Shown here piece by piece: positions 5,744 through 16,504 of a stretch of 64,000 bases of DNA. Each line of letters begins with the position of its first letter. Position 1 is the first letter of the stretch. The translations under genes and the position numbers were made by a program. The DNA is taken from contig JAJPHI010000018.1 of NCBI GenBank assembly GCA_021325355.1, positions 193,617 through 257,616 of the forward strand, written 5' to 3'. This stretch comes from Pseudomonadota bacterium. Lineage in GTDB: Bacteria; Desulfobacterota; Binatia; Binatales; Binataceae. The notes beneath the pieces were generated by a model that saw nothing but the letters and a program-made list of their open reading frames with translations, ran no database searches and had not been told where the DNA came from.

Positions 5744-6610
5744 TCATGCGGGCGGCATTTGCGCGAGCCACTGCCGCAACTGCGGTGCGAGATCGGGTCG
5801 TTTCAGCCCAAAACCAATCTGCGCGGTCAGGAAGCCCAGGCGGTCGCCGAGGTCATAGCGGATGCCCTCGATCTCAAGGCCGTACAGCGTGCGGCGTTGC
5901 GCGAGCGCGAGCAGCGCGTCGGTCAGTTGGATCTCGCCACCTGCGCCGGGTTTAACCTGCTCGAGCAGGGTAAAAATTTCGGGTGTCAGGATATAGCGGC
6001 CCATGATTGCGAGATCGCTCGGGGCATCTTCGGGCGCCGGCTTCTCGACCATCCCGGTGAGATGCCACAGGCGGCCGGCGGCCGGCCGGACCGCGACGAT
6101 CCCGTACTTCGAAAGATCGACGCGGGCGACGCGCATCAGCGCGACGGTCGGCGCCGCGGTGGCTTCGGCATGCTCGAGCAATTGCCGCAGGCACGGCGTG
6201 GGGCTGTCAAAAATGTCGTCGGGCAGGATCACGGCGAAGGGTTCGTCGCCGACGGCCGCGCGCGCCTGCAAGACCGCGTGACCGAGGCCGAGGGGCTCGC
6301 TCTGCCAGGCGACGGTGAAGCGCGCGAGGCGGTTCGGCGCGCGCGCGATTTCGAGCAGGTCGAGCTTGCGGCGCTGCTCGAGGTGGCGCTCGAGCAGCGG
6401 CGCCGGCTGGAAATGCTCGAGCAGCAGCTCCTTGCCGGGACCCAGCAGCAGGATGATCTCTTCGATTCCTGAAGCCGCCGCCTCTTCCACGACCATCTGC
6501 AGCGCGGGTTTATCGACGACCGGCAGGATCTCTTTCGGGACCACCTTCGATGCGGGCAGCATCCGGGTGCCGAGGCCTGCCGCCACGATTACGGCCTTGC
6601 GTACCTTCAT
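5744..6610 (-). CDS. galU: UTP--glucose-1-phosphate uridylyltransferase
   Basis: AAGLGTRMLPASKVVPKEILP, LGLGHAV, VEKP, GEIQLTDAL. Confidence 0.93.
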   Translation of the reverse strand: MKVRKAVIVAAGLGTRMLPASKVVPKEILPVVDKPALQMVVEEAAASGIEEIILLLGPGKELLLEHFQPAPLLERHLEQRRKLDLLEIARAPNRLARFTVAWQSEPLGLGHAVLQARAAVGDEPFAVILPDDIFDSPTPCLRQLLEHAEATAAPTVALMRVARVDLSKYGIVAVRPAAGRLWHLTGMVEKPAPEDAPSDLAIMGRYILTPEIFTLLEQVKPGAGGEIQLTDALLALAQRRTLYGLEIEGIRYDLGDRLGFLTAQIGFGLKRPDLAPQLRQWLAQMPPA

Positions 6611-6662
6611 GCGTTCAAGATGGCGGCGAGCGGCCCCTGGAGCAAGGTAAAAATTGACGGCG

Positions 6663-6920
6663 CTACGCGTCGGACGCCGTGCGGTCCGGCGGATGCCCGA
6701 TCATCTGCATGCCGTAACGAATCATGGCGACGAGCCGCTCGATGCGGTCGAGCAATTCGGGATGAGCGGCGGGCGGCGCGAGCGGCAGTTCGGCCGCCGC
6801 TGAGGCAAGACTTGCGCGCATCAAGGCGACGGCCTTTTCGAGATCGAGATGTTCCGTGCGGCGCCGTTGCGCGCGTTCGCGCGCCGCCTGCCGCTCGTGG
6901 AGTTCAATCAGCTCGCCCAT
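6663..6920 (-). CDS. hypothetical protein (85 aa, helical)
   Basis: ATG-initiated ORF filling the trmJ-galU gap on the same strand; helical composition; no recognised family. Confidence 0.6.
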   Translation of the reverse strand: MGELIELHERQAARERAQRRRTEHLDLEKAVALMRASLASAAAELPLAPPAAHPELLDRIERLVAMIRYGMQMIGHPPDRTASDA

Positions 6921-6967
6921 CGATCAATTATTTATCGCGACCGGCAGGGGCGGGCCAGAGGGGACGG

Positions 6968-7735
6968 TCAGCGCAATTTTTGGCCGCGCCGTCGTTTGGC
7001 GGCGAGCGTTTCGTAGCCGCCGTCGGCGACCCATTGCACCTGCCGGGCGATACCGCTCAGGATATCCAGCTCGCGCGGTCGGATACCGCCGCGTCCGAGC
7101 ATCGCGCGCAGGGTCATCATGAGATGGTCGGGGTTTTCCGCCGGCAGAAAACCGATCGCGAGGAGTGCGGAGGTGAGCCGCTGGAACATGGCTTCGACTT
7201 CGTTGGCGCCGGCGAGCTGCACGGTGGTCGGCAGGTCGCCGGGGTGCTGCAGCGCGAGACGCAATTCGTAGGCGACCAGGAGCACGGCCTGCGCCAGGTT
7301 GAGGGACGCATAGGCGGGGGACGCCGGGATCGTAATCAGGCGCTGGCAGTGCTTGAGGTCTTCGTTGGTCAGGCCGAAGTCTTCGGGACCGAAGAGCATC
7401 GCGATTTGATTGGCGGCGGCGCATGCGGCGAGATCGGCGGCGGCGTCGCGCAGCGTGCGCGCTTCACTGCGATAGAGGCCGCGGCGCGCAGTGGTGCCGA
7501 CCACCAGCGTGCGATCGGCGAGGGCGGCTTCCAGGTCAGGATAGGTACGCGCCTGTTCGAGAATGTCGGCCGCGTGCACCGCCATCGCCGCGGCGCGCGT
7601 CGCATCGTGGCGCTGCGGAGCGACCAGGCGCAGATCGGCGAAGCCCATATTCTTCATCGCGCGGGCCGTCGCTCCGATATTGCCGGGTGACTTCGGTCGC
7701 ACCATCACGAAGGCAAAACGATCGAAACCGTCCAT
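6968..7735 (-). CDS. trmJ: SPOUT RNA methyltransferase, TrmJ/LasT family
   Basis: PGNIGATARAMKNMG, FGPEDFGLTNEDL, YASLNLAQAV. Confidence 0.88.
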   Translation of the reverse strand: MDGFDRFAFVMVRPKSPGNIGATARAMKNMGFADLRLVAPQRHDATRAAAMAVHAADILEQARTYPDLEAALADRTLVVGTTARRGLYRSEARTLRDAAADLAACAAANQIAMLFGPEDFGLTNEDLKHCQRLITIPASPAYASLNLAQAVLLVAYELRLALQHPGDLPTTVQLAGANEVEAMFQRLTSALLAIGFLPAENPDHLMMTLRAMLGRGGIRPRELDILSGIARQVQWVADGGYETLAAKRRRGQKLR

Positions 7736-8483: not shown

Positions 8484-9659
8484 CTAGCGGCTTTCCTTCA
8501 TGGCTTCGACGAGGATCGCGGCGATTTCGGGCCGGGTGTACTCGGGGGGCGGCGCCTGTCCCGCGCGCAGCATCTCGCGGACTTTCGTGCCGGAGAGCAG
8601 AAGGCGATCGGCGTCGGTATGGGGACAAGTCTTGTACGACGCCATGCCGAGGCATTTGCTGCAGTAAAAGGTGTTTTCGAACATCAGCGGGGTGATGCCG
8701 ATCTCGTCGCGCCCAAAGCGCTCGAACATTTTCTGCGCGTCATAAGTGCCGTAGTAATTGCCGACGCCCGCGTGATCCCGCCCGACGATGAAGTGGGTGC
8801 AGCCGTAGTTTCGGCGAATAATGGCGTGCAGGATCGCCTCGCGCGGCCCGCCGTAGCGCATGTGCGCCGGCATCACCGAGAGCATCGCGCGACCCTTCGG
8901 ATAGTAGAATTCGAGTAACACTTTGTAGGTTTTCATCCGGATCGCCGCCGGCACGTCGTCGGACTTGGTCTCGCCGACCAGCGGATGAAGCAGGAAGCCG
9001 TCGCAGATTTCGAGCGCGGCTTTCTGGATATACTCGTGCGCCCGATGGGTCGGGTTGCGGGTCTGGAAGGCGACGATCTTGCGCCAGCCGAGTTCGCGAA
9101 AGCGGGCCCGCGTCTCGCGAGGTTCGAGCCGATACTCAAGGAAGGTGCGGCCCGGAATATCGTCGATGAGGGTGACGGTGCCGCCGAGACACCAGGGCGG
9201 CGTCGAGGTGACGTTCCTGGCGCCGGGATGGGCGTCCTCGGCGGTGCCGAAGACGGCCTCCGCCTCGCGGCTGCGATCGACCTGGAAGATGTCGGTGACT
9301 CTCTGAATCGCCAGCGGCGCGCCGTTTTCGGCGACGAGCGCGACTTCCTGGCCGGGCTTGAGCGAACGGGCAAGCGCTTCCTCGACGCCGAGGGTGATCG
9401 GAATTGACCAGGGGGTGCCGTTCGCGAGCCGCATGTCATCGCGACTGCGCACGTAGTCCGCCTCGGTCATGAAACCGGTCAGCGGGGTGAAGGCTCCCGA
9501 CGCCAGCATCTCGAGGTCGGCCAGATCGCGCGCGCTGAGCGGCGCCTGCACCAGGCCCTCCGCATGCTTGCGCAAGCCCACCCGCTCGCTGGCCGGGGCC
9601 TTGAGGTCGACCAGTTCACCACCACCGTGCGCGCTAATCGCGTCGTCTTTAATACTCAT
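8484..9659 (-). CDS. sat: sulfate adenylyltransferase
   Basis: [46 protein letters not shown]. Confidence 0.96.
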
Positions 9660-10195
9660 CGGGCAACACCATTGATAAAACCCTTGGCTTCGAGTGCGGC
9701 CAGCAGCCGCGCGAGACTTTCTTCGCGCGTCTCGGTATGCGAATTGACGACAAGTTCAGGCGCCAGCGGCGGTTCGTAGGGATCGTCGACGCCGGTGAAA
9801 TTCTTGATCTCGCCGGCGAGCGCCTTCTTGTAGAGCCCCTTGACGTCGCGCTCGACGAGGGTATCGAGCGGACACTCGACATAAACCTCGAAGAAGCGGT
9901 CGTGCATCTTGCGCACTTCCTCGCGCACGCTGCGGTAGGGGGAAATCGCCGCCGAGATCGCGATTACGCCGTTGCGCGCGAGCAAGCGGCAGACCCATCC
10001 GATACGTCGGATATTGGTATCGCGGTCCTCCTTGGAGAAACCCAGACCTTTGGAGAGATTGGTGCGCACCTCATCGCCGTCGAGAATCTCGACCCGATGC
10101 TGGCGGGCGCGAAGTTCATCGGCCACCAGGTTGGCGAGCGTTGACTTGCCGGCACCTGACAGGCCGGTGAACCAAAGCGTGAATCCGTGCTGCAT
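9656..10195 (-). CDS. cysC: adenylyl-sulfate kinase
   Basis: [49 protein letters not shown]; ATG at 10195. Confidence 0.95.
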
Positions 10196-10226
10196 TTTCC
10201 GGTAGCTTTCCCCCAAGGACAAATAT

Positions 10227-10278
10227 GAGTCAACAGACTCTATAAGTCCAGTTTATAGTTGACGTTGACTTCGAGCAA
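10227..10278 (-). promoter_or_regulatory. putative sigma70 promoter of cysC-sat with overlapping palindromes
   Basis: Minus strand TTGCTC(10278-10273)-17 nt-TAAACT(10255-10250); palindromes CTATAA-N7-TTATAG (10240-10258) and GAGTC-N4-GACTC (10227-10240); AT-rich. Confidence 0.45.
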
Positions 10279-10315
10279 CAAAACTTTTATCGCCAGGCGA
10301 CTCGCCGCGATCTTT

Positions 10316-11212
10316 TCAGGCCGCGTTCTCCTCCGAGAGCACGGTTTCCCTGGCGTAGATACGCGGACGGAACCATCCGTTGACGAAGTAGCCGTAGAGC
10401 AGATAAAGGTCAAATGCGATTACAGCTAACCAGATAAGGTAGGCATTGGGTGAAGATGCCAGTTTAAGCTCGATGACTGTCCGGGAGAGGCCGAAGCCGA
10501 TAATCCAGGCGTCGAAGCTCATGCAGATGCGGCGGAAGGTTTCGCTGGTCAGGCGGCGCAGGGCATAGGTGCCGAGCGGCAGACCGATCAGGAGGGCGGG
10601 AGCGATCGGCGCGACGAGTTCCAGGCTCCGGCGCGTGAACAGGCCGAGGGCGAAATAGGCGATCGCAGTGAAAGTCGTCTCAGCCACCCTGACGGTTCCC
10701 AAAGCCGCGCGAAATTCCTCCATCTCGAGGCCCTGATTGTTGAACAGCAGCGCGAGCGGCGGGCCCGAAATCGTGGTCGTGGCGTAGAGCGTGCCGACAC
10801 CGAGGCCGATGGGCGCGGCGGCGAAGCGTTCGGCGCGTAGGCGGCGGCGGAATCCTGCGGCCTGCAGGAGCACGAACGGCAGGATAACGATATAGGTCGC
10901 GAGCTTGAGCCATCCGCCATTGACGTGGCTGAGGAGATAACTGCCGAGCACAATGCCGGGCAGCAGGCCGATGAGGATTGGCAGCGTCCGGGCCTTGACG
11001 GCCGCAAAGCTGCGGCGGTTCAGAATCACCACCCAGGTATTGACCGCGAGCTCGACCAAGACCAGCGCGGGACTCAGGATGCGGTTGGAAAAGAACAGCA
11101 AGGCGACCGGTACCGTGAGGGAGGAAAAACCGTAACCCAGGGCGCCGTTGACCGTTGCGGCAAACAGGGCAATCGCAAAAAGGACCGCCGTTCCGGTATC
11201 GAGATGTATCAT
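10316..11212 (-). CDS. TauE/SafE (TSUP) family sulfur-compound transporter
   Basis: Polytopic membrane protein with NGALGYGFS and TTISGPP repeats typical of TSUP; adjacent to cysC-sat. Confidence 0.8.
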   Translation of the reverse strand: MIHLDTGTAVLFAIALFAATVNGALGYGFSSLTVPVALLFFSNRILSPALVLVELAVNTWVVILNRRSFAAVKARTLPILIGLLPGIVLGSYLLSHVNGGWLKLATYIVILPFVLLQAAGFRRRLRAERFAAAPIGLGVGTLYATTTISGPPLALLFNNQGLEMEEFRAALGTVRVAETTFTAIAYFALGLFTRRSLELVAPIAPALLIGLPLGTYALRRLTSETFRRICMSFDAWIIGFGLSRTVIELKLASSPNAYLIWLAVIAFDLYLLYGYFVNGWFRPRIYARETVLSEENAA

Positions 11213-11219
11213 TTAACTC

Positions 11220-11271
11220 TAGTATTTTAATGGACTAAAAAGAATTTAGACGATTGGTAAGCGTGGGTCAA
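11220..11271 (-). promoter_or_regulatory. putative sigma70 promoter of TauE gene with downstream palindrome
   Basis: Minus strand TTGACC(11271-11266)-17 nt-TAAATT(11248-11243); TAGT-N10-ACTA at 11220-11237 at the predicted start site. Confidence 0.5.
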
Positions 11272-11380
11272 TGGGAAAATTCGTGCGAGAAGCTGACTTA
11301 TTGCCAGCTTAATGAACGATTCAGAAAACTCGTCCGATCAGCGACCTGACAGGTTGTTTACAGCTTACTTGACGAATCAA

Positions 11381-12145
11381 CTAGACTTGCGTCTGTATCC
11401 GGGCGTCGAGCTCGGCCGGTGAGCCGACCACCGCCGCGCCGGCACGTTCAAGGCGGGCTCGCGCCTCCGCCGTTGGCGCGATACCGAGAAACCGCACCTG
11501 CGCGGCCGCGGCCGCCGCAAGATCGGTCACCGCGTCACCGACGAAGACCGCGTCGGCGGGCGCGGCTCCGCAGAGGTCAAGGGCGCGGCGAAGCGTGTCG
11601 GGGGCGGGTTTGAGCGGCAGCAGCGCGTCGCGCCCGACCATCGCCGAAACCGTGTCGTCGAGTTGATGGCGGGCGAGCCATGCCCGGACGGTACGCGACG
11701 AATTCGAGGTGACGATCGCGACCGTCCGTGCGGCCGCGCGGAGCCGCCGCAGGAGCGCGCTCGTGCCGACGAGGGCCGCCGCCGTGGCGGCGCCCCGCAG
11801 TTCATACGCTTCGATTATGGCCGAGGCGCGGCGGAGCAGTTCGCGCGGTTCGCGTGCGGCGAGGCCTTGGACGGCGAAGGGTCCGGGCGCGCCGTCGGAC
11901 GCCCCGCCGAGACGGCTGCGGAGAAGCTCGAAGAGGAGGAGATTGCCGCGTGGAACTTCATTGAAGAGCTCTTCCGGGACGCCCGACCGCCGCAGGTAGG
12001 CTTCGAGTTCGATACGGCTCGCGGCCCAATCGACGGTGGGCTCGAGGGCGACCAGGGTATTGTCGAAATCGAAGAGCCACACGCGCGCGGCGCGCCAATC
12101 TGGTGCCGAGCGGCTGGCCGCGGGGGTCATCGTGCGTTCGCTCAC
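11381..12145 (-). CDS. HAD-family hydrolase/phosphatase
   Basis: FDFDNTL, IVTSN, KPAPD, FVGDAVTD; GTGA overlap with upstream ThiF-like gene. Confidence 0.85.
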   Translation of the reverse strand: MSERTMTPAASRSAPDWRAARVWLFDFDNTLVALEPTVDWAASRIELEAYLRRSGVPEELFNEVPRGNLLLFELLRSRLGGASDGAPGPFAVQGLAAREPRELLRRASAIIEAYELRGAATAAALVGTSALLRRLRAAARTVAIVTSNSSRTVRAWLARHQLDDTVSAMVGRDALLPLKPAPDTLRRALDLCGAAPADAVFVGDAVTDLAAAAAAQVRFLGIAPTAEARARLERAGAAVVGSPAELDARIQTQV

Positions 12146-12732
12146 GCCGTGCGCGGGGCGGCGAGGCGCGCGGCGTAACCGTCGAAGTCGATCCGCCGGC
12201 CGGAATGGTCGGTGATACCGGCCAGGGTCTTCAGAATCTCGGTTGCCGCGACCATGGTGACCAGATCGCTAACCGCCGCGGGCCTCGTGAACGGCCGCAG
12301 CAGTTCGGGTGGAGGCGGCGTGTCGAGGATCGTGATTGCGGCCGGATGGTCGAGCCGGGTGATAATCGCCGAGTCAAATTGACCGCGCGCGCACAGCGCC
12401 TGGGCGAGAGCGCGGCTCGCCGCGCTGCCGATGAATAGCGCCGCGAGGTGCGCCGGACGTGGCGGCTCGTCGTCGGCGGTAATCGCGACGTCGGGATTGA
12501 GCGCGCGGGCGTGCGCGAGTATCCGCGCGCGATCGCCGCCGGGTTCTGCGGGCCGCAGCTCGAGACGGCCGACGCCGGCCCCGACCAGGTAGTAGAGAAC
12601 CGGCTCGAGGCGCTCGAGGTCGCCGGCGAGGAGCACGGTTGAGGCGAGCAGGCGCTGCTGAGCGACCCCGCCCATCTCGCCGACGATGAGCTGGCGGCTG
12701 TAGCGCTCGATCTGTTCGTGGGTCAACGCCAA
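12142..12732 (-). CDS. degenerate ThiF/MoeB-like protein (putative inactive adenylation subunit)
   Basis: Keeps EQIERYSRQL, QQRLLASTVL, YLVGAGVG, LNPDV, AATEILKTLAG; lacks GxGxxG, SNLxRQ, CxxC pairs and catalytic Cys; TTG start. Confidence 0.8.
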   Translation of the reverse strand: MALTHEQIERYSRQLIVGEMGGVAQQRLLASTVLLAGDLERLEPVLYYLVGAGVGRLELRPAEPGGDRARILAHARALNPDVAITADDEPPRPAHLAALFIGSAASRALAQALCARGQFDSAIITRLDHPAAITILDTPPPPELLRPFTRPAAVSDLVTMVAATEILKTLAGITDHSGRRIDFDGYAARLAAPRTA

Positions 12733-12747
12733 GGGGGACGGCCGCGG

Positions 12748-12993
12748 CTATTCGATGACGTTTTTTTCAATGGGCTCGACCGTGACGCCGGTCTGCCGGA
12801 GCCAAACGAGCGCGCGTTCGAGCTGATCGCGATTGCCTTCGAGCTCGACGGCCACCAGTCCCATATCCTCGGAGACGCTGGCGCCGCGGATATTGAACAC
12901 CAGGTCAAATTTCTTGACCAGATGGTAGAGAATCGGCTCCCGGATAAGGGCGCGGGGATAGCTCAGGTAGTAGCGTTCGCGGAGACGTTCCAC
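12748..12993 (-). CDS. stand-alone NIL (ACT-like) domain protein
   Basis: LSYPRALIREPILYHLVKKFDLVFNIRGASV...GLVAVELEG...GVTVEP matches the NIL pattern; GTG start at 12993 inferred. Confidence 0.85.
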   Translation of the reverse strand: MERLRERYYLSYPRALIREPILYHLVKKFDLVFNIRGASVSEDMGLVAVELEGNRDQLERALVWLRQTGVTVEPIEKNVIE

Positions 12994-14009
12994 CGGCTTA
13001 CCAATCGTTCTATCCGATCGCGTCGCCATTGCTGCCATCCAATCCACAGGTTAGTTGACAGATAACGATCGCCGAAATCGGCAAAAATGGTGACGACGCA
13101 GCCTTCACGCAGACTGCACGCCACCTTGAGCGCGGCGACCATTGCGGCTCCCGATGACTGGCCGACCAGGACGCCTTCGACCTGGCCGAGCGCATAGACC
13201 ATGTCGTAAGCGTCTTCGGTGCTGACGGCAATCTTGTCGTCGAGTTCGGCTTCGTTATAGATGCCGGGGACGATCGAGGTGGCCATGTGCTTGAGGCCTT
13301 CGAGTCCGTGCATCGCGTCGTCGGGCTCCATCCCGATTACCCGGATGGCGGGATTGCGGGATTTGAGGTAGCGCCCGGTGCCCATCACGGTGCCGCTGGT
13401 GCCGAGCCCGGCGACGAAATGGGTCACGGTGCCGCCGGTCTGACGCCAGATTTCGGGTCCGGTGGTTTGAAAATGGGCCAGCGGGTTCGCCGCGTTGTTA
13501 TATTGATCGGGCTTGAAGTAGCGGTCGGGATTTTCGGCGATGATCTTGCGGCATAGCAGGATGGCGCCGTCGGAACCTTCGAGCGGATCGGAATAGATGG
13601 GGCGGGCGCCGAAGGCCTCGATAATTTTCTTGCGCTCCTTGCTGACGTTGGCGGCCATCACCAGCTCGACCGGATAACCCAGCGCCGCTCCGACCATCGC
13701 GAGGGCGATACCGGTATTGCCCGAGGTCGAATCGATAATCACCTTGCCGGGCCGCAGATCGCCGCGCTCGAGCCCGATCTCGACCATCTTGCGCGCCGGC
13801 CGATCCTTGACCGAACCGCCGGGATTGAAGCCTTCGAGCTTGGCGAACACCCGCACCCCGGGACGGACGAGTCCTTCGGTCAGCCGGGTGATTTCGAGCA
13901 GCGGCGTGTTGCCGATAAGCTCGAGCACGCTCGACGCGCGCTGGATCGGCGTCGGTTCGGATCTAACGTCCGCCGGCGATTGCCGGGACGATCGAGATAT
14001 CGTCGCCAT
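12963..14009 (-). CDS. cysM: PLP-dependent cysteine synthase, CysM type (start uncertain; alternative GTG at 13928)
   Basis: IGNTPL, KLEGFNPGGSVKDR, STSGNTG, GLGTSGT, GQSSGAA, DFGDRYLS. Confidence 0.88.
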   Translation of the reverse strand: MATISRSSRQSPADVRSEPTPIQRASSVLELIGNTPLLEITRLTEGLVRPGVRVFAKLEGFNPGGSVKDRPARKMVEIGLERGDLRPGKVIIDSTSGNTGIALAMVGAALGYPVELVMAANVSKERKKIIEAFGARPIYSDPLEGSDGAILLCRKIIAENPDRYFKPDQYNNAANPLAHFQTTGPEIWRQTGGTVTHFVAGLGTSGTVMGTGRYLKSRNPAIRVIGMEPDDAMHGLEGLKHMATSIVPGIYNEAELDDKIAVSTEDAYDMVYALGQVEGVLVGQSSGAAMVAALKVACSLREGCVVTIFADFGDRYLSTNLWIGWQQWRRDRIERLVSRWNVSANATT

Positions 14010-14241
14010 CCTTGACCTTTGAATCGAGCGCGCTGAGGAAACGGATATCGTCGCCGTTCAGGTAGACATTGACGAAGCGGCGCAGCTCGCCCTTCTCGTC
14101 GAGCAGCCGTTCGCCGATCCCGGGATGACGCCGGTCGAGGTCCTGAATGACGGCCTTGATCGAGTCGCCCTCGGCGGCCACCTCGTCATTCCCGCCGGTA
14201 AAGCGCCGCAGCGGGGTCGGCACACGAACTTTAATTCCCAT
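13963..14241 (-). CDS. MoaD/ThiS/CysO-family ubiquitin-like sulfur carrier
   Basis: VRVPTPLRRFTGG, LRRFVNVYLNGDDIR, SIVPAIAGG plus one extra Arg. Confidence 0.93.
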   Translation of the reverse strand: MGIKVRVPTPLRRFTGGNDEVAAEGDSIKAVIQDLDRRHPGIGERLLDEKGELRRFVNVYLNGDDIRFLSALDSKVKDGDDISIVPAIAGGR

Positions 14242-14273
14242 TGCCCTGACCTTACCTCCTGAGCGCGGCCCGG

Positions 14274-15590
14274 CTAAGCGGCGCCGGCGAGCGGCCGCGC
14301 GGTGCCGTTGAGACGCTCGAACAAGGCGTCGAAGTCCTTGAGCCGCGCTTCGATTACATACGGCTGCGGCAGTCCCTGCGCAACCGCTTCGAGCGTCTTG
14401 TAGCCGTTGCCGGTAACCGCGACCACCACGGTTTCGTGGGGATCGATGCGCCGTTGGGCGACGAGCTTCATGGCGACGGCGAGGGTGGTACCACCAGCCG
14501 GTTCGGCAAAGATCCCCTCGCAGCGGGCCAGCAGGTTAATCGCCTCGATGATTTCCGGGTCGCTCGCGACTTCGCCCCATCCGCCCGATTCGCGCACGGC
14601 CCTGAGCACGTAAAAACCGTCGGCCGGGTTGCCGATCGCGATCGACTTGGCGATGGTATCAGGTTTGACCGGCGTAATCAGGTCGGTGCCCTTGTGCAGG
14701 GCGTTGATTACCGGCGCGGAGCCGGCGGCCTGGGCGCTGTGGACCTTGCAGGCGGAATCGTCGATGAGGCCGACCTCTTTAAGCTCCTTAAAGGCCTTGG
14801 CGACCTTGGGCAGGATGGTGCCGCCGGCCGTCGGAATCACGATATGGTCGGGCAGGCGCCAGCCGAGTTGCTCGGCGACTTCGAAGCCGTAGGTCTTGGC
14901 CCCTTCGGTGTAGTAGGGCCGCAGATTGATATTGACGAAGGCCCAACCGTACTTATCGGCAATTTCACTGCACAGTCGGTTGACGTCGTCATAGTTGCCG
15001 CGAATCGTGATGACGGAGGCGCCGTAGAGCGTCGAACCGACGATCTTGCCGGCCTCGACGCCCTCGGGCATGAAGATCACGCAATTGAGCCCGGCACGCG
15101 CGGCGTGCGCGGCGACGGCAGTGGCGAGATTGCCGGTCGAGGCGCAGGAGACGGTCTTGAAACCGAACTCGCGCGCCTTCGAGATGGCGACCGAGACCAC
15201 CCGATCCTTGTAGGAGAGCGTCGGATGGTTGACGGTGTCATCCTTGATGTAGAGCTCCTTGAGGCCGAGCTCGGCACCGAGGCGCGCGGCTTTGACCAAA
15301 GGGGTGAAGCCGGAGTGGGGACCGACCTGAGGTTCGCCGGCGACCGGCAACAGCTCGCGATAGCGCCAGAGGTTGCGCGGACGCGCTTCGATGAGGCTGC
15401 GCGAAACCGCGCGCCGCATCCGCGCATAGTCGTAGATGACTTCGAGCGGACCGAAGCACATTTCGCAGACGTGCAGCGGACTCAACGGATAGGTCTGACC
15501 GCATTCGCGGCATTTGAGGTCGGTAACGAAGGTCTCTTCTTGTGTCCGCACTTTCGCAGACTCCTTATTCAAGCGCTTGCGCGCTGTCAC
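14274..15590 (-). CDS. threonine synthase-like PLP enzyme (possible O-phosphohomoserine sulfhydrylase)
   Basis: N-terminal Zn ribbon CRECG..CEMCFGPL, HPTLSYKDR, ASTGNLA, SIAIGNPADG, FAEPAGG, TGNGYK; next to sulfur carrier under a SAM riboswitch. Confidence 0.85.
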   Translation of the reverse strand: MTARKRLNKESAKVRTQEETFVTDLKCRECGQTYPLSPLHVCEMCFGPLEVIYDYARMRRAVSRSLIEARPRNLWRYRELLPVAGEPQVGPHSGFTPLVKAARLGAELGLKELYIKDDTVNHPTLSYKDRVVSVAISKAREFGFKTVSCASTGNLATAVAAHAARAGLNCVIFMPEGVEAGKIVGSTLYGASVITIRGNYDDVNRLCSEIADKYGWAFVNINLRPYYTEGAKTYGFEVAEQLGWRLPDHIVIPTAGGTILPKVAKAFKELKEVGLIDDSACKVHSAQAAGSAPVINALHKGTDLITPVKPDTIAKSIAIGNPADGFYVLRAVRESGGWGEVASDPEIIEAINLLARCEGIFAEPAGGTTLAVAMKLVAQRRIDPHETVVVAVTGNGYKTLEAVAQGLPQPYVIEARLKDFDALFERLNGTARPLAGAA

Positions 15591-16291
15591 GATCCGAGCA
15601 CACGGGCGCCGTCAGGCGCGCGCCAATCACAGCGACATCCGGGACGGCGGCCGATTTCCGTTACGCGGATACGGCCGCGGCGGCCATCGTAGGTAAGCAT
15701 CTGACCGGCCAGTTCGAGCGCTTCGCCGCGCAGCCATCGGAGGGCCTCGGCGGCCTGGGTGATGCCGATCGCGCCGGCAACCGGACCGATGATTCCGGCG
15801 TCACGGCAGCTCGCGCTCTCGTCGGCGTCGGGCGGTTCCTCGAACAGGCAGCGCAGGCAGGCGGTGCGCCCGGGAACCACCGTCATCGTCTGGCCCGTCA
15901 TCCCGAGCACGCCGCCATAGGCGAACGGCGTGCCGGTCTCGATACAGACATCGTTAATCAGAAACTTGGTCGTCGGATTATCGACCGCGTCGATGACGAA
16001 GGTCGCGGCCGCAATCAGGGCGTGGGCGTTCGCCGAATCGAGCATCAGCCGATGCGTAACGACCTCGACGCCGGGAGCATTAGCCGCGAGCCATCGGGCC
16101 GCTGCCGCGACCTTCGGCTGACCGCGATCGGCGTCGCGATAGATGATCTGGCGGGGCAGGTTCGAGAGCTCGACCGGATCGGCATCGACCAGGGCAAGTT
16201 TGGCGCCGCCGCGAGCGAGGGTCATCAGGGCGGGCGCGCCAAGACCGCCGACGCCGACTACGAGTACGCTTTGCTTGACCGAATCGCTCAT
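15587..16291 (-). CDS. ThiF/MoeB-family adenylyltransferase lacking the N-terminal RYxRQ helix
   Basis: VVGVGGLG, DADPVELSNLPRQ, PKV, IDAVDN, CLRC, SC(catalytic)RDAGIIG, C-terminal CRC; starts MSDSVKQSVLVVG. Confidence 0.9.
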   Translation of the reverse strand: MSDSVKQSVLVVGVGGLGAPALMTLARGGAKLALVDADPVELSNLPRQIIYRDADRGQPKVAAAARWLAANAPGVEVVTHRLMLDSANAHALIAAATFVIDAVDNPTTKFLINDVCIETGTPFAYGGVLGMTGQTMTVVPGRTACLRCLFEEPPDADESASCRDAGIIGPVAGAIGITQAAEALRWLRGEALELAGQMLTYDGRRGRIRVTEIGRRPGCRCDWRAPDGARVLGS

Positions 16292-16320: not shown

Positions 16321-16358
16321 AAACGAAAACCCTCGCCCGAATGACAAGGACGAGGGTT
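16321..16358 (-). terminator. intrinsic terminator (riboswitch expression platform)
   Basis: Minus strand AACCCTCGTCC-ttgtcattc-GGGCGAGGGTT followed by TTCGTTT, directly 3' of the SAM-I aptamer. Confidence 0.8.
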
Positions 16359-16370
16359 CTGCAACTCTCG

Positions 16371-16488
16371 CCTTATCTTCCAAGACCTTTATCAAGGTCT
16401 CGCAGGATTTAGCACCAGCACCCCTTCGATAATTGGGGCCGGTTGCTGCGGCATCGTAGGGCCCGTCCCTCCGCCGCTCTGGATAAGG
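16371..16488 (-). ncRNA. SAM-I (S-box) riboswitch
   Basis: Minus strand CCTTATCCAGAGCGGCGGAGGGACGGGCCCTACGATGCCGCAGCAACC...GGTGCTAAATCCTGC...GGAAGATAAGG: P1 CTTATC/GATAAG, kink-turn P2, GCAACC, GTGC-AA-TCC consensus. Confidence 0.93.
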
Positions 16489-16504
16489 CCGCGATCTGGG
16501 GGTT

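Follow-up and report, generated by a model that had tools for sequence, protein, structure and literature searches.

How can an E1-like enzyme of sulfur-carrier metabolism work if it carries the ATP-site motifs of the MoeB/ThiF family but lacks the N-terminal RYxRQ helix? In MoeB/ThiF homodimers this helix reaches into the ATP site of the partner subunit. The question is raised by a 64,000-nucleotide stretch of contig JAJPHI010000018.1 (assembly GCA_021325355.1, positions 193,617 to 257,616 of the forward strand) from a bacterium of the family Binataceae, class Binatia; we call this whole stretch the window and count positions from its first letter. Its minus strand carries a gene for a helix-less protein of the MoeB/ThiF type, here named MoeBs (15587..16291), and in the same operon a gene for a degenerate paralog, degThiF (12142..12732). 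A preliminary description, made from the letters of the window alone, had taken the two products for complementary halves of a heterodimeric activator resembling the eukaryotic SAE1/SAE2 enzyme. The observation of complementary halves is confirmed by our analysis. That MoeBs and degThiF form a functional asymmetric E1-like enzyme is, in our judgement, probable: every computational test to which this reading could be put, co-occurrence, selection and a model of the complex among them, spoke for it.

MoeBs retains the ATP site and lacks the helix

The product of 15587..16291 scores 211.4 bits against the Pfam ThiF profile (PF00899; cut-off 28.1), with a match that covers only profile positions 20-237 of 238. 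When MoeBs is aligned with E. coli ThiF (E 4.6e-35), its residue 7 falls on ThiF residue 29, and its residue 8 falls on MoeB residue 33, so that MoeBs has nothing to match the first 25 or so residues of the canonical enzymes. The protein of 234 amino acids is collinear with the 251 residues of ThiF and contains no insertion.

The motifs of an active enzyme are all in place. MoeBs holds GVGGLG, SNLPRQ, K60, D101/D104, C145xxC148, the crossover-loop cysteine C162 and C219xC221, and these are invariant in 57 aligned orthologs, including the ATP-site residues G13-G18, R47/Q48, K60 and D101/D104. Their equivalents in MoeB are Arg73 (of SNLxRQ), Lys86 and Asp130, according to an excerpt of PMC12355090. 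GxGxxG was present in 60/60 orthologs and SNLxRQ in 59/60, the exception being a frameshifted assembly, while 0/60 have an in-frame RYxRQ either at the MoeBs start or 5' of it. The open in-frame stretch 5' of the window gene extends over 27 codons, contains no RYxRQ and runs into a riboswitch terminator, as the preliminary description had stated; a SAM-I aptamer (for S-adenosylmethionine, SAM) and its hairpin lie there. Scans with Pfam and NCBIfam revealed no rhodanese domain in MoeBs, so MoeBs needs some sulfur-delivery partner.

degThiF retains the helix and has lost the ATP site

degThiF is the converse case. It matches MoeB/ThiF models over residues 2-59 only (best E 7.5e-10) and stays below the Pfam ThiF cut-off (19.5 versus 28.1 bits), with residues 11-59 alone matching. 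Alignment with canonical relatives places LLAGDLERLE, without any GxGxxG, at the P-loop position and opens an 18-column gap where the relatives have D-x-D-x-V-x-x-SNLxRQ; the CxxC/CxC cysteines are absent from the window copy. The reading of 12142..12732 as a protein that kept the helix and lost the P-loop, SNLxRQ and zinc cysteines was thus borne out by the alignment gap, the Pfam score and the motif counts given below.

Despite these losses, models and profiles indicate that degThiF keeps the ThiF/MoeB fold across its whole length. A profile of the degThiF family aligns with ThiF over 3-243 (E 2.5e-17) and with MoeB over 4-245 (E 2.8e-14), and hhalign relates it to the MoeBs family with 95.3% probability over 187 columns. 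The AlphaFold2 model has a predicted local distance difference test (pLDDT) score of 90.3, and its top Foldseek matches are ThiF (1zud; TM 0.74, probability 1.00) and MoeB (1jw9). SAE1 chains also occur among the matches, at TMq 0.62-0.67 and from rank 26 onwards.

In 31 aligned family members L3, Q7, I8, Y11, R13, Q14, V17, G21, Q25, Y48 and G51-G55 are invariant; these positions make up the N-terminal helix and the YLVGAGVG motif, and R13 is present in 31/31. A full HMMER search of 1.84 billion representatives gave 848 matches with E<=0.001, of which 114 have E<=1e-10; lengths of 200-230 amino acids prevail. Scanning one genome per species, we found 80 degThiF loci, 79 of which were analysed; one (L113 in our numbering of loci) was excluded as a canonical archaeal MoeB. 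Three loci (L037, L091, L102) come from genomes flagged as unpublished, and their omission alters no result. RYxRQ lies within the first 30 residues in 79/79 loci, SNLxRQ occurs in 0/79 and GxGxxG at the place of the P-loop in 0/78, while CxxC is still there in 62/78; the window gene belongs to the copies without the cysteines. An unanchored GxGxxG pattern matched 13 degThiF proteins, but these matches proved to be the later GAGVGxIG motif and not the P-loop. The features of MoeBs and of degThiF recur in every ortholog examined.

The two genes occur together

Full-length degThiF was found in 23/24 genomes of the same family, or in 21/22 if two unpublished genomes (G006 and G022) are left aside. 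The only one without it (G013, 96% complete) likewise has no MoeBs-type or MetM-type match, its best matches being 37% and 36% identical and belonging to housekeeping paralogs. degThiF is present in 21/21 published same-family genomes that carry the operon, and it extends to at least 13 families of the class. The preliminary description had named a patchy distribution as evidence against the pairing; what we see is the partner wherever there is a truncated MoeB, both in these 21 genomes and in 18/18 operons sampled across the class (see below).

A phylum-wide scan with the degThiF profile returned 5/301 genomes at E<=1e-20, a tally that understates the distribution because the stringent threshold misses diverged and very small partners. 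One of the five, G137, was rejected as a carrier, its gene being a canonical full-length MoeB. Several frameshifts and in-frame stops affect all operon genes in L018/L057, L031/L072 and L158, and they look like assembly indels rather than pseudogenes. A contig labelled Stellaceae (L077) matches a Binataceae contig (L067) in the coordinates of its operon genes and in the identity of each gene to that of the window, the sole difference being that the L067 contig ends within Sat; the Stellaceae label is probably a binning or naming error.

MoeBs and degThiF belong to one conserved operon. The minus strand of the window is a run of closely spaced or overlapping open reading frames from 8484 to 16291, headed by a riboswitch:

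16370..16489, minus strand: SAM-I (S box) riboswitch aptamer in the operon leader (Rfam RF00162, 87.5 bits against a gathering threshold of 44.4, E 3.2e-20, full model 1-108)
16329..16351, minus strand: terminator-like hairpin with a T-rich tail, riboswitch expression platform (terminator scan; 9-pair stem followed by TTTCGTTT)
15587..16291, minus strand: MoeBs, putative active adenylation subunit, ThiF/MoeB domain, 234 amino acids (Pfam ThiF, 211.4 bits)
14274..15590, minus strand: threonine-synthase-like (ThrC) enzyme dependent on pyridoxal phosphate (PLP), with an N-terminal Cys4 ribbon, MetM-like candidate (Pfam PALP, 248 bits; NCBIfam PRK08197, 323 bits)
13963..14241, minus strand: sulfur-carrier protein of the MoaD/ThiS fold, CysO/MetO-like, 92 amino acids (Pfam ThiS, 60.9 bits; NCBIfam SAMP1/MoaD family)
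12963..14009, minus strand: CysM-like cysteine synthase (NCBIfam cysM TIGR01138, 377.7 bits, just below the cut-off of 394.2; Pfam PALP, 228 bits)
12748..13047, minus strand: small NIL-domain protein (Pfam NIL, 52.8 bits)
12142..12732, minus strand: degThiF, inactive paralog of the ThiF fold, proposed helper resembling an inactive adenylation domain (IAD), 196 amino acids (RYSRQ helix and YLVGAGVG kept)
11381..12145, minus strand: HAD-family phosphatase (Pfam Hydrolase/HAD_2)
10316..11212, minus strand: TauE/SafE exporter (Pfam TauE)
9656..10222, minus strand: APS kinase CysC (Pfam APS_kinase)
8484..9659, minus strand: ATP sulfurylase Sat (Pfam ATP-sulfurylase and PUA_2)

The order MoeBs-ThrC-MoaD-CysM-NIL-degThiF is kept in 18/20 loci of relatives; of the other two, one has MoeBs directly beside degThiF and one (G010) has about 930 kb between them. 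In the larger set MoeBs lies within 65/79 loci. Five genomes without MoeBs at the locus were searched whole, and MoeBs was found elsewhere in 5/5 (one of them, G334, unpublished). In nine loci (L045, L046, L047, L050, L053, L056, L058, L064, L082) the four middle genes have another location and MoeBs directly precedes degThiF.

degThiF is under purifying selection

We estimated the ratio of nonsynonymous to synonymous substitution rates (dN/dS) by the Nei-Gojobori method (NG86) from pairs with a degThiF dS of 0.05-1.2; 78/79 degThiF loci passed the open-frame filter. Over 828 pairs, which are not independent of one another, the median dN/dS was 0.49 for degThiF, 0.30 for MoeBs, 0.20 for CysM and 0.15 for ThrC. 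When degThiF was split at the GAGVG motif, the ratio of medians (300 pairs) stayed below 1 on both sides, at 0.24 in the N-terminal part and 0.46 in the remainder, and the neutral evolution that the preliminary description had set against its own proposal was not seen. Constraint on degThiF is weaker than on the neighbouring genes, yet the gene clearly does not evolve neutrally, and purifying selection is strongest on the helix region.

Sister families show a series from one gene to two

A MetM-like gene is present in 65/121 sampled genomes of Binatia. We compared 23 distinct operons, 20 of them taken from these genomes in other families, and three more. Four of them (G026, G356, G347 and G430, from three families) encode a full-length operon MoeB whose LTPEQIERYSRQ N-terminus is intact, and lack a partner gene; the only other helix-bearing ThiF gene anywhere in each of these genomes is of the rhodanese type, with about 400 residues. 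One operon (G029) contains two intact-looking paralogs, the upstream one with a RYERQ helix and the downstream one with helix, P-loop, SNLHRQ and zinc cysteines. In G393, from the same family as G029, the upstream gene is truncated and the partner has its P-loop but no SNLxRQ. The 17 other operons combine a truncated upstream MoeB with a degenerate downstream partner.

MoeB is thus truncated in 18/23 operons, and a downstream helix-bearing partner accompanies it in 18/18. All 18 partners keep the second arginine and the glutamine of the motif, while the first arginine or the tyrosine varies (RWSRQ, HYSRQ). In this sample, therefore, the helper is present when the operon MoeB has no helix and was not found when the helix is kept; since the genomes are related, the independent events are fewer than the operons.

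Some partners have only 120-190 amino acids, with little beyond the N-terminal 55 or so residues and the C-terminal helix. Partners of 120-173 amino acids without zinc cysteines, made up mainly of these two regions, were recorded at L164, L166, L169, L170, L171, L175 and L176. If the pair is an obligate heterodimer, such proteins would be the smallest known inactive adenylation subunits and a natural dissection of the minimal requirement for an IAD.

Binatia thus present a series from one full-length gene through two paralogs to a truncated gene with a degenerate partner. BLAST scores of the least degenerate partners against full-length operon MoeBs (215-227 bits; L162) and against rhodanese-MoeB (213 bits) fit a duplication within the operon without proving it, and are too close for the donor paralog to be named. 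A bolder reading is that bacteria of this class repeated, independently and in full, the step that yielded the asymmetric eukaryotic E1. A homodimeric MoeB would have been duplicated in a biosynthetic operon, one copy losing the helix and the other the active site, and in several families the dead copy would then have shrunk to a helper of 120-190 amino acids, hardly more than the arginine-finger helix and the elements of dimer contact; on this reading we are evenly divided.

The modelled heterodimer places the helix beside the active-site loop

A complex of MoeBs (57-row alignment), ATP and degThiF (31-row alignment) was modelled in three runs, together with three controls. The interface score ipSAE of the heterodimer was 0.91, 0.91 and 0.92, as against 0.00 for the best control; the runs share at least 97% of contacts, and the pLDDT of the partner is at least 88. 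On the degThiF side the predicted interface comprises residues 6, 9-14, 16-20, 43-53, 70-80, 156-168 and 176-190. Residues 9-14 (ERYSRQ) and 16-20 are predicted to touch MoeBs residues 42-47 (LSNLPR), the loop that carries the equivalent of MoeB Arg73. By our own count, 17/37 invariant or near-invariant positions of degThiF are among the 44 interface residues, with about 8 expected. The heterodimer model, one of those that the preliminary description had suggested, favours a pseudo-dimer of the ThiF type in which ERYSRQ would contact the LSNLPR loop of the active subunit.

A proposed mechanism

We propose that degThiF replaces the second protomer of the ancestral homodimer, giving a pseudo-dimer with a single active site. 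It would retain the elements of the dimer interface and return in trans the N-terminal helix that MoeBs is missing, including the second arginine of RYSRQ, the equivalent of MoeB Arg14; the helix or this arginine would be needed for activity or stability. MoeBs, as the sole ATP-binding subunit, would bind ATP and adenylate the C-terminal glycine of the MoaD/CysO-like carrier of the operon, its presumed substrate. The adenylated carrier would then be converted to a thiocarboxylate that feeds the CysM-like enzyme for cysteine and the MetM-like ThrC enzyme for homocysteine, the whole operon being under the control of the SAM riboswitch.

The neighbouring genes fill in parts of this scheme. From its gene context, the ThrC-like protein (14274..15590) is a candidate homocysteine synthase dependent on the carrier thiocarboxylate. 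In at least 56/61 orthologs the carrier ends in AIAGG followed by one variable residue (R, E, N, H, V and others), and because of this extra residue it probably needs C-terminal trimming before adenylation. Some other carriers are known to be trimmed in this way. The genome's only Prok-JAB (Mec-like) candidate lies on another contig (G000:C25:70632-70991). The hairpin at 16329..16351 lies 38 nucleotides 5' of the MoeBs start codon; its meaning derives from its place after the aptamer and not from any enrichment, since the total of terminator-like sites across the region is not above shuffled expectation.

The NIL protein, which lies between CysM and degThiF in most operons, has an identical C-terminal EKNVIE in 65/65 orthologs; its true start is probably further downstream, because the listed frame overlaps CysM by 85 nucleotides and BLAST matches often begin near residue 19. 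The start of the HAD phosphatase gene overlaps the degThiF stop codon (GTGA), and the gene keeps its place in most relatives. At locus L119 (G019:C19, about 6224-7663) degThiF has an insertion of about 90 residues and no stop before the HAD phosphatase, giving an open frame of 520 amino acids, and a database protein of 447 amino acids (P0142) begins with a degThiF-like region. The fused frame, the GTGA overlap and P0142 hint that degThiF and the HAD enzyme are functionally linked. CysC and Sat follow downstream of the operon in most relatives. A TauE/SafE gene between HAD and CysC occurs in a minority of related loci (L024, L027, L028, L031, L032; further loci with it include L059, L072, L078, L080, L091 and L098).

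Alternative explanations

Several observations weigh against an asymmetric enzyme. Physical heterodimerisation is predicted from a model, and the high ipSAE may reflect likeness to known dimers, because ThiF/MoeB homodimers are solved structures. In calibration, 58/80 solved complexes and 2/110 mismatched pairs reached the ipSAE mark, counts that are a rough guide only since our model used its own alignments and a ligand. What the model shows is contact of the arginine helix with the neighbouring SNLPRQ loop only; the arginine itself may or may not enter the ATP pocket. The co-occurrence counts are not independent events, because the genomes are related. degThiF is the fastest-evolving gene of the operon, its identity to the window copy being 36-45% compared with 76-88% for ThrC, and a dN/dS of 0.4-0.5 over most of its length amounts to moderate constraint only. 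Finally, the arginine fingers MoeB Arg14 and ThiF Arg11 are described as not catalytically essential in the accessible part of PMC13139853, so that MoeBs might work without a donated arginine, and what the helper contributes may be structural support more than an arginine.

This last report also speaks for the strongest alternative, which we hold to be unlikely: MoeBs would be self-sufficient, as a homodimer or as a monomer without an arginine finger, and degThiF would be a non-catalytic accessory with a different task, such as docking a sulfur donor, the NIL protein, the HAD phosphatase or the carrier; or else MoeBs would pair with a housekeeping rhodanese-MoeB. The need of the rhodanese-less MoeBs for a sulfur-delivery partner would suit an accessory role, as would the overlap of degThiF with the HAD gene start and the single frame shared by the two in G019. 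A candidate for the other pairing exists as well. The second ThiF-family gene of the genome, on another contig (G000:C14:368545-369258; L001 1111-2331), encodes a protein of 406 amino acids in which a rhodanese domain at the N-terminus is joined to a complete MoeB domain (RYSRH helix, P-loop and SNLQRQ). Presumably this protein serves as the housekeeping activator, and it might also donate sulfur. An accessory role, however, does not readily account for what is conserved: nothing in degThiF is kept universally except the region of the N-terminal helix and elements that fall in the modelled interface of the ThiF type. That the partner was not found in the four sampled genomes whose operon MoeB keeps its helix is likewise hard to explain if the job of degThiF has nothing to do with the helix, and the adjacency of MoeBs and degThiF survives in the nine loci from which the middle genes have moved away.

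It is very improbable that degThiF is a functionless, decaying remnant of a duplicated MoeB whose complementarity to MoeBs is coincidental. The loss of every ATP-binding motif and the fast evolution of the gene would fit decay, but 78/79 loci are open-frame, the gene is spread over at least 13 families, RYxRQ persists in 79/79 loci with dN/dS below 1 in both parts of the protein, and the AlphaFold2 model is confident. Least credible of all is an annotation or assembly artefact, with the true MoeBs start upstream or the gene a fragment: frameshifts do occur in the assemblies of several relatives (L018/L057, L031/L072), but the upstream space is filled by aptamer and terminator, its 27 open codons hold no motif, none of 60 orthologs from many independent assemblies has the helix in frame, and full-length MoeBs of other Binatia show an intact N-terminus at the same operon position.

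Comparison with known systems

If the asymmetric enzyme is real, the question why E1s turned asymmetric, and what such an enzyme gains from its inactive half and the arginine there, could be studied in a tractable system, with living intermediates of a duplication-degeneration-complementation path in sister families. A conserved protein family now annotated as "hypothetical" would also be named correctly, and the SAM-regulated route by which Binatia would make cysteine and homocysteine with a carrier thiocarboxylate would gain its activator. The records examined hold only metagenome-assembled genomes of this widespread soil lineage. Our literature searches, which covered articles without their supplementary files, found no description of a two-gene bacterial E1-like enzyme, in agreement with the preliminary description, which knew of no such split in sulfur-carrier metabolism; the close analogues are the fused BilD and the Tcd1-Tcd2 pair. 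As of 2023, all known bacterial E1-like activators of sulfur carriers were homodimers (PMC10557695). A 2006 survey of prokaryotic E1-like gene neighbourhoods mentions inactive E2-like domains and, in the part of its text available, no inactive E1 partner (PMC1779556).

The operon as a whole has the gene set of a CysO/MetO-type pathway: a GG carrier, CysM/MetM-type enzymes and an E1-like activator. It resembles CysO/CysM/MoeZ/Mec of Mycobacterium and MetO/MetM/MoeZ/Mec of Streptomyces in its MoaD-like carrier, its PLP enzymes of the CysM and ThrC (MetM) types and its E1-like activator. The role of MetM is known from Streptomyces, while MetO is listed only as a sulfur carrier protein (GapMind 2026 table). 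The activator of those pathways, however, is a single MoeZ with a rhodanese domain, in place of which Binatia have a rhodanese-less, truncated MoeB and a dead paralog; the Binatia operon further adds the NIL protein and the HAD phosphatase.

MoeBs and degThiF share their fold with E. coli MoeB-MoaD (1jw9/1jwa/1jwb) and ThiF-ThiS (1zud/1zfn). The ATP motifs, zinc site and crossover-loop cysteine of those enzymes are the same as in MoeBs, and their substrate is likewise a carrier of the MoaD/ThiS fold with a terminal GG. A MoeB or ThiF homodimer binds ATP and carrier on both of its subunits (PMC12355090, in excerpt). Each subunit there gives its N-terminal arginine to the other, whereas in Binatia helix and active site are on separate gene products.

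Two paralogous units of the adenylation fold with an ATP site in only one of them constitute the asymmetric layout of inactive and active adenylation domains. SAE1/SAE2 and NAE1/NAE2 are heterodimers of an inactive and an active subunit, according to the same excerpt of PMC12355090, and the Binatia pair is like SAE1/SAE2 and NAE1/UBA3 in combining two such subunits into what is here a modelled pseudo-symmetric dimer with one active site. It differs from them in having no CYS/SCCH, FCCH or UFD domain and no E2-like gene in the operon, and in its proposed product, a thiocarboxylate for amino-acid synthesis instead of a conjugate. Lacking a CYS domain, UFD and E2, the pair is not a member of the canonical E1 class, and the greater likeness of degThiF to ThiF/MoeB than to SAE1 suggests that the pair arose independently within Binatia. 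In yeast, the ct6A cyclase Tcd1-Tcd2 also consists of two ThiF-family paralogs, one inactive but required; the inactive Tcd1 complements the Tcd2 site with an Arg59 finger, and the R59A mutation had little effect (the accessible part of PMC13139853). That enzyme is eukaryotic, acts on tRNA, has extra C-terminal domains, and its Tcd2 keeps its own N-terminal region.

The asymmetric architecture has been treated as a hallmark of eukaryote-type E1s, and the only bacterial case that we found in the literature is BilD, the fused E1 of the Bil antiviral system. In eukaryotic E1s and in BilD the inactive domain supplies one key arginine (PMC10557695). Like the proposed Binatia pair, BilD is bacterial and joins an inactive and an active adenylation domain as a pseudo-dimer, with Arg9 coming from the inactive domain (PMC10557695). 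BilD, however, is a single polypeptide that has a CYS domain and works with an E2 and a deubiquitinase (DUB) in phage defence, whereas the Binatia system is divided between two genes of a biosynthetic operon.

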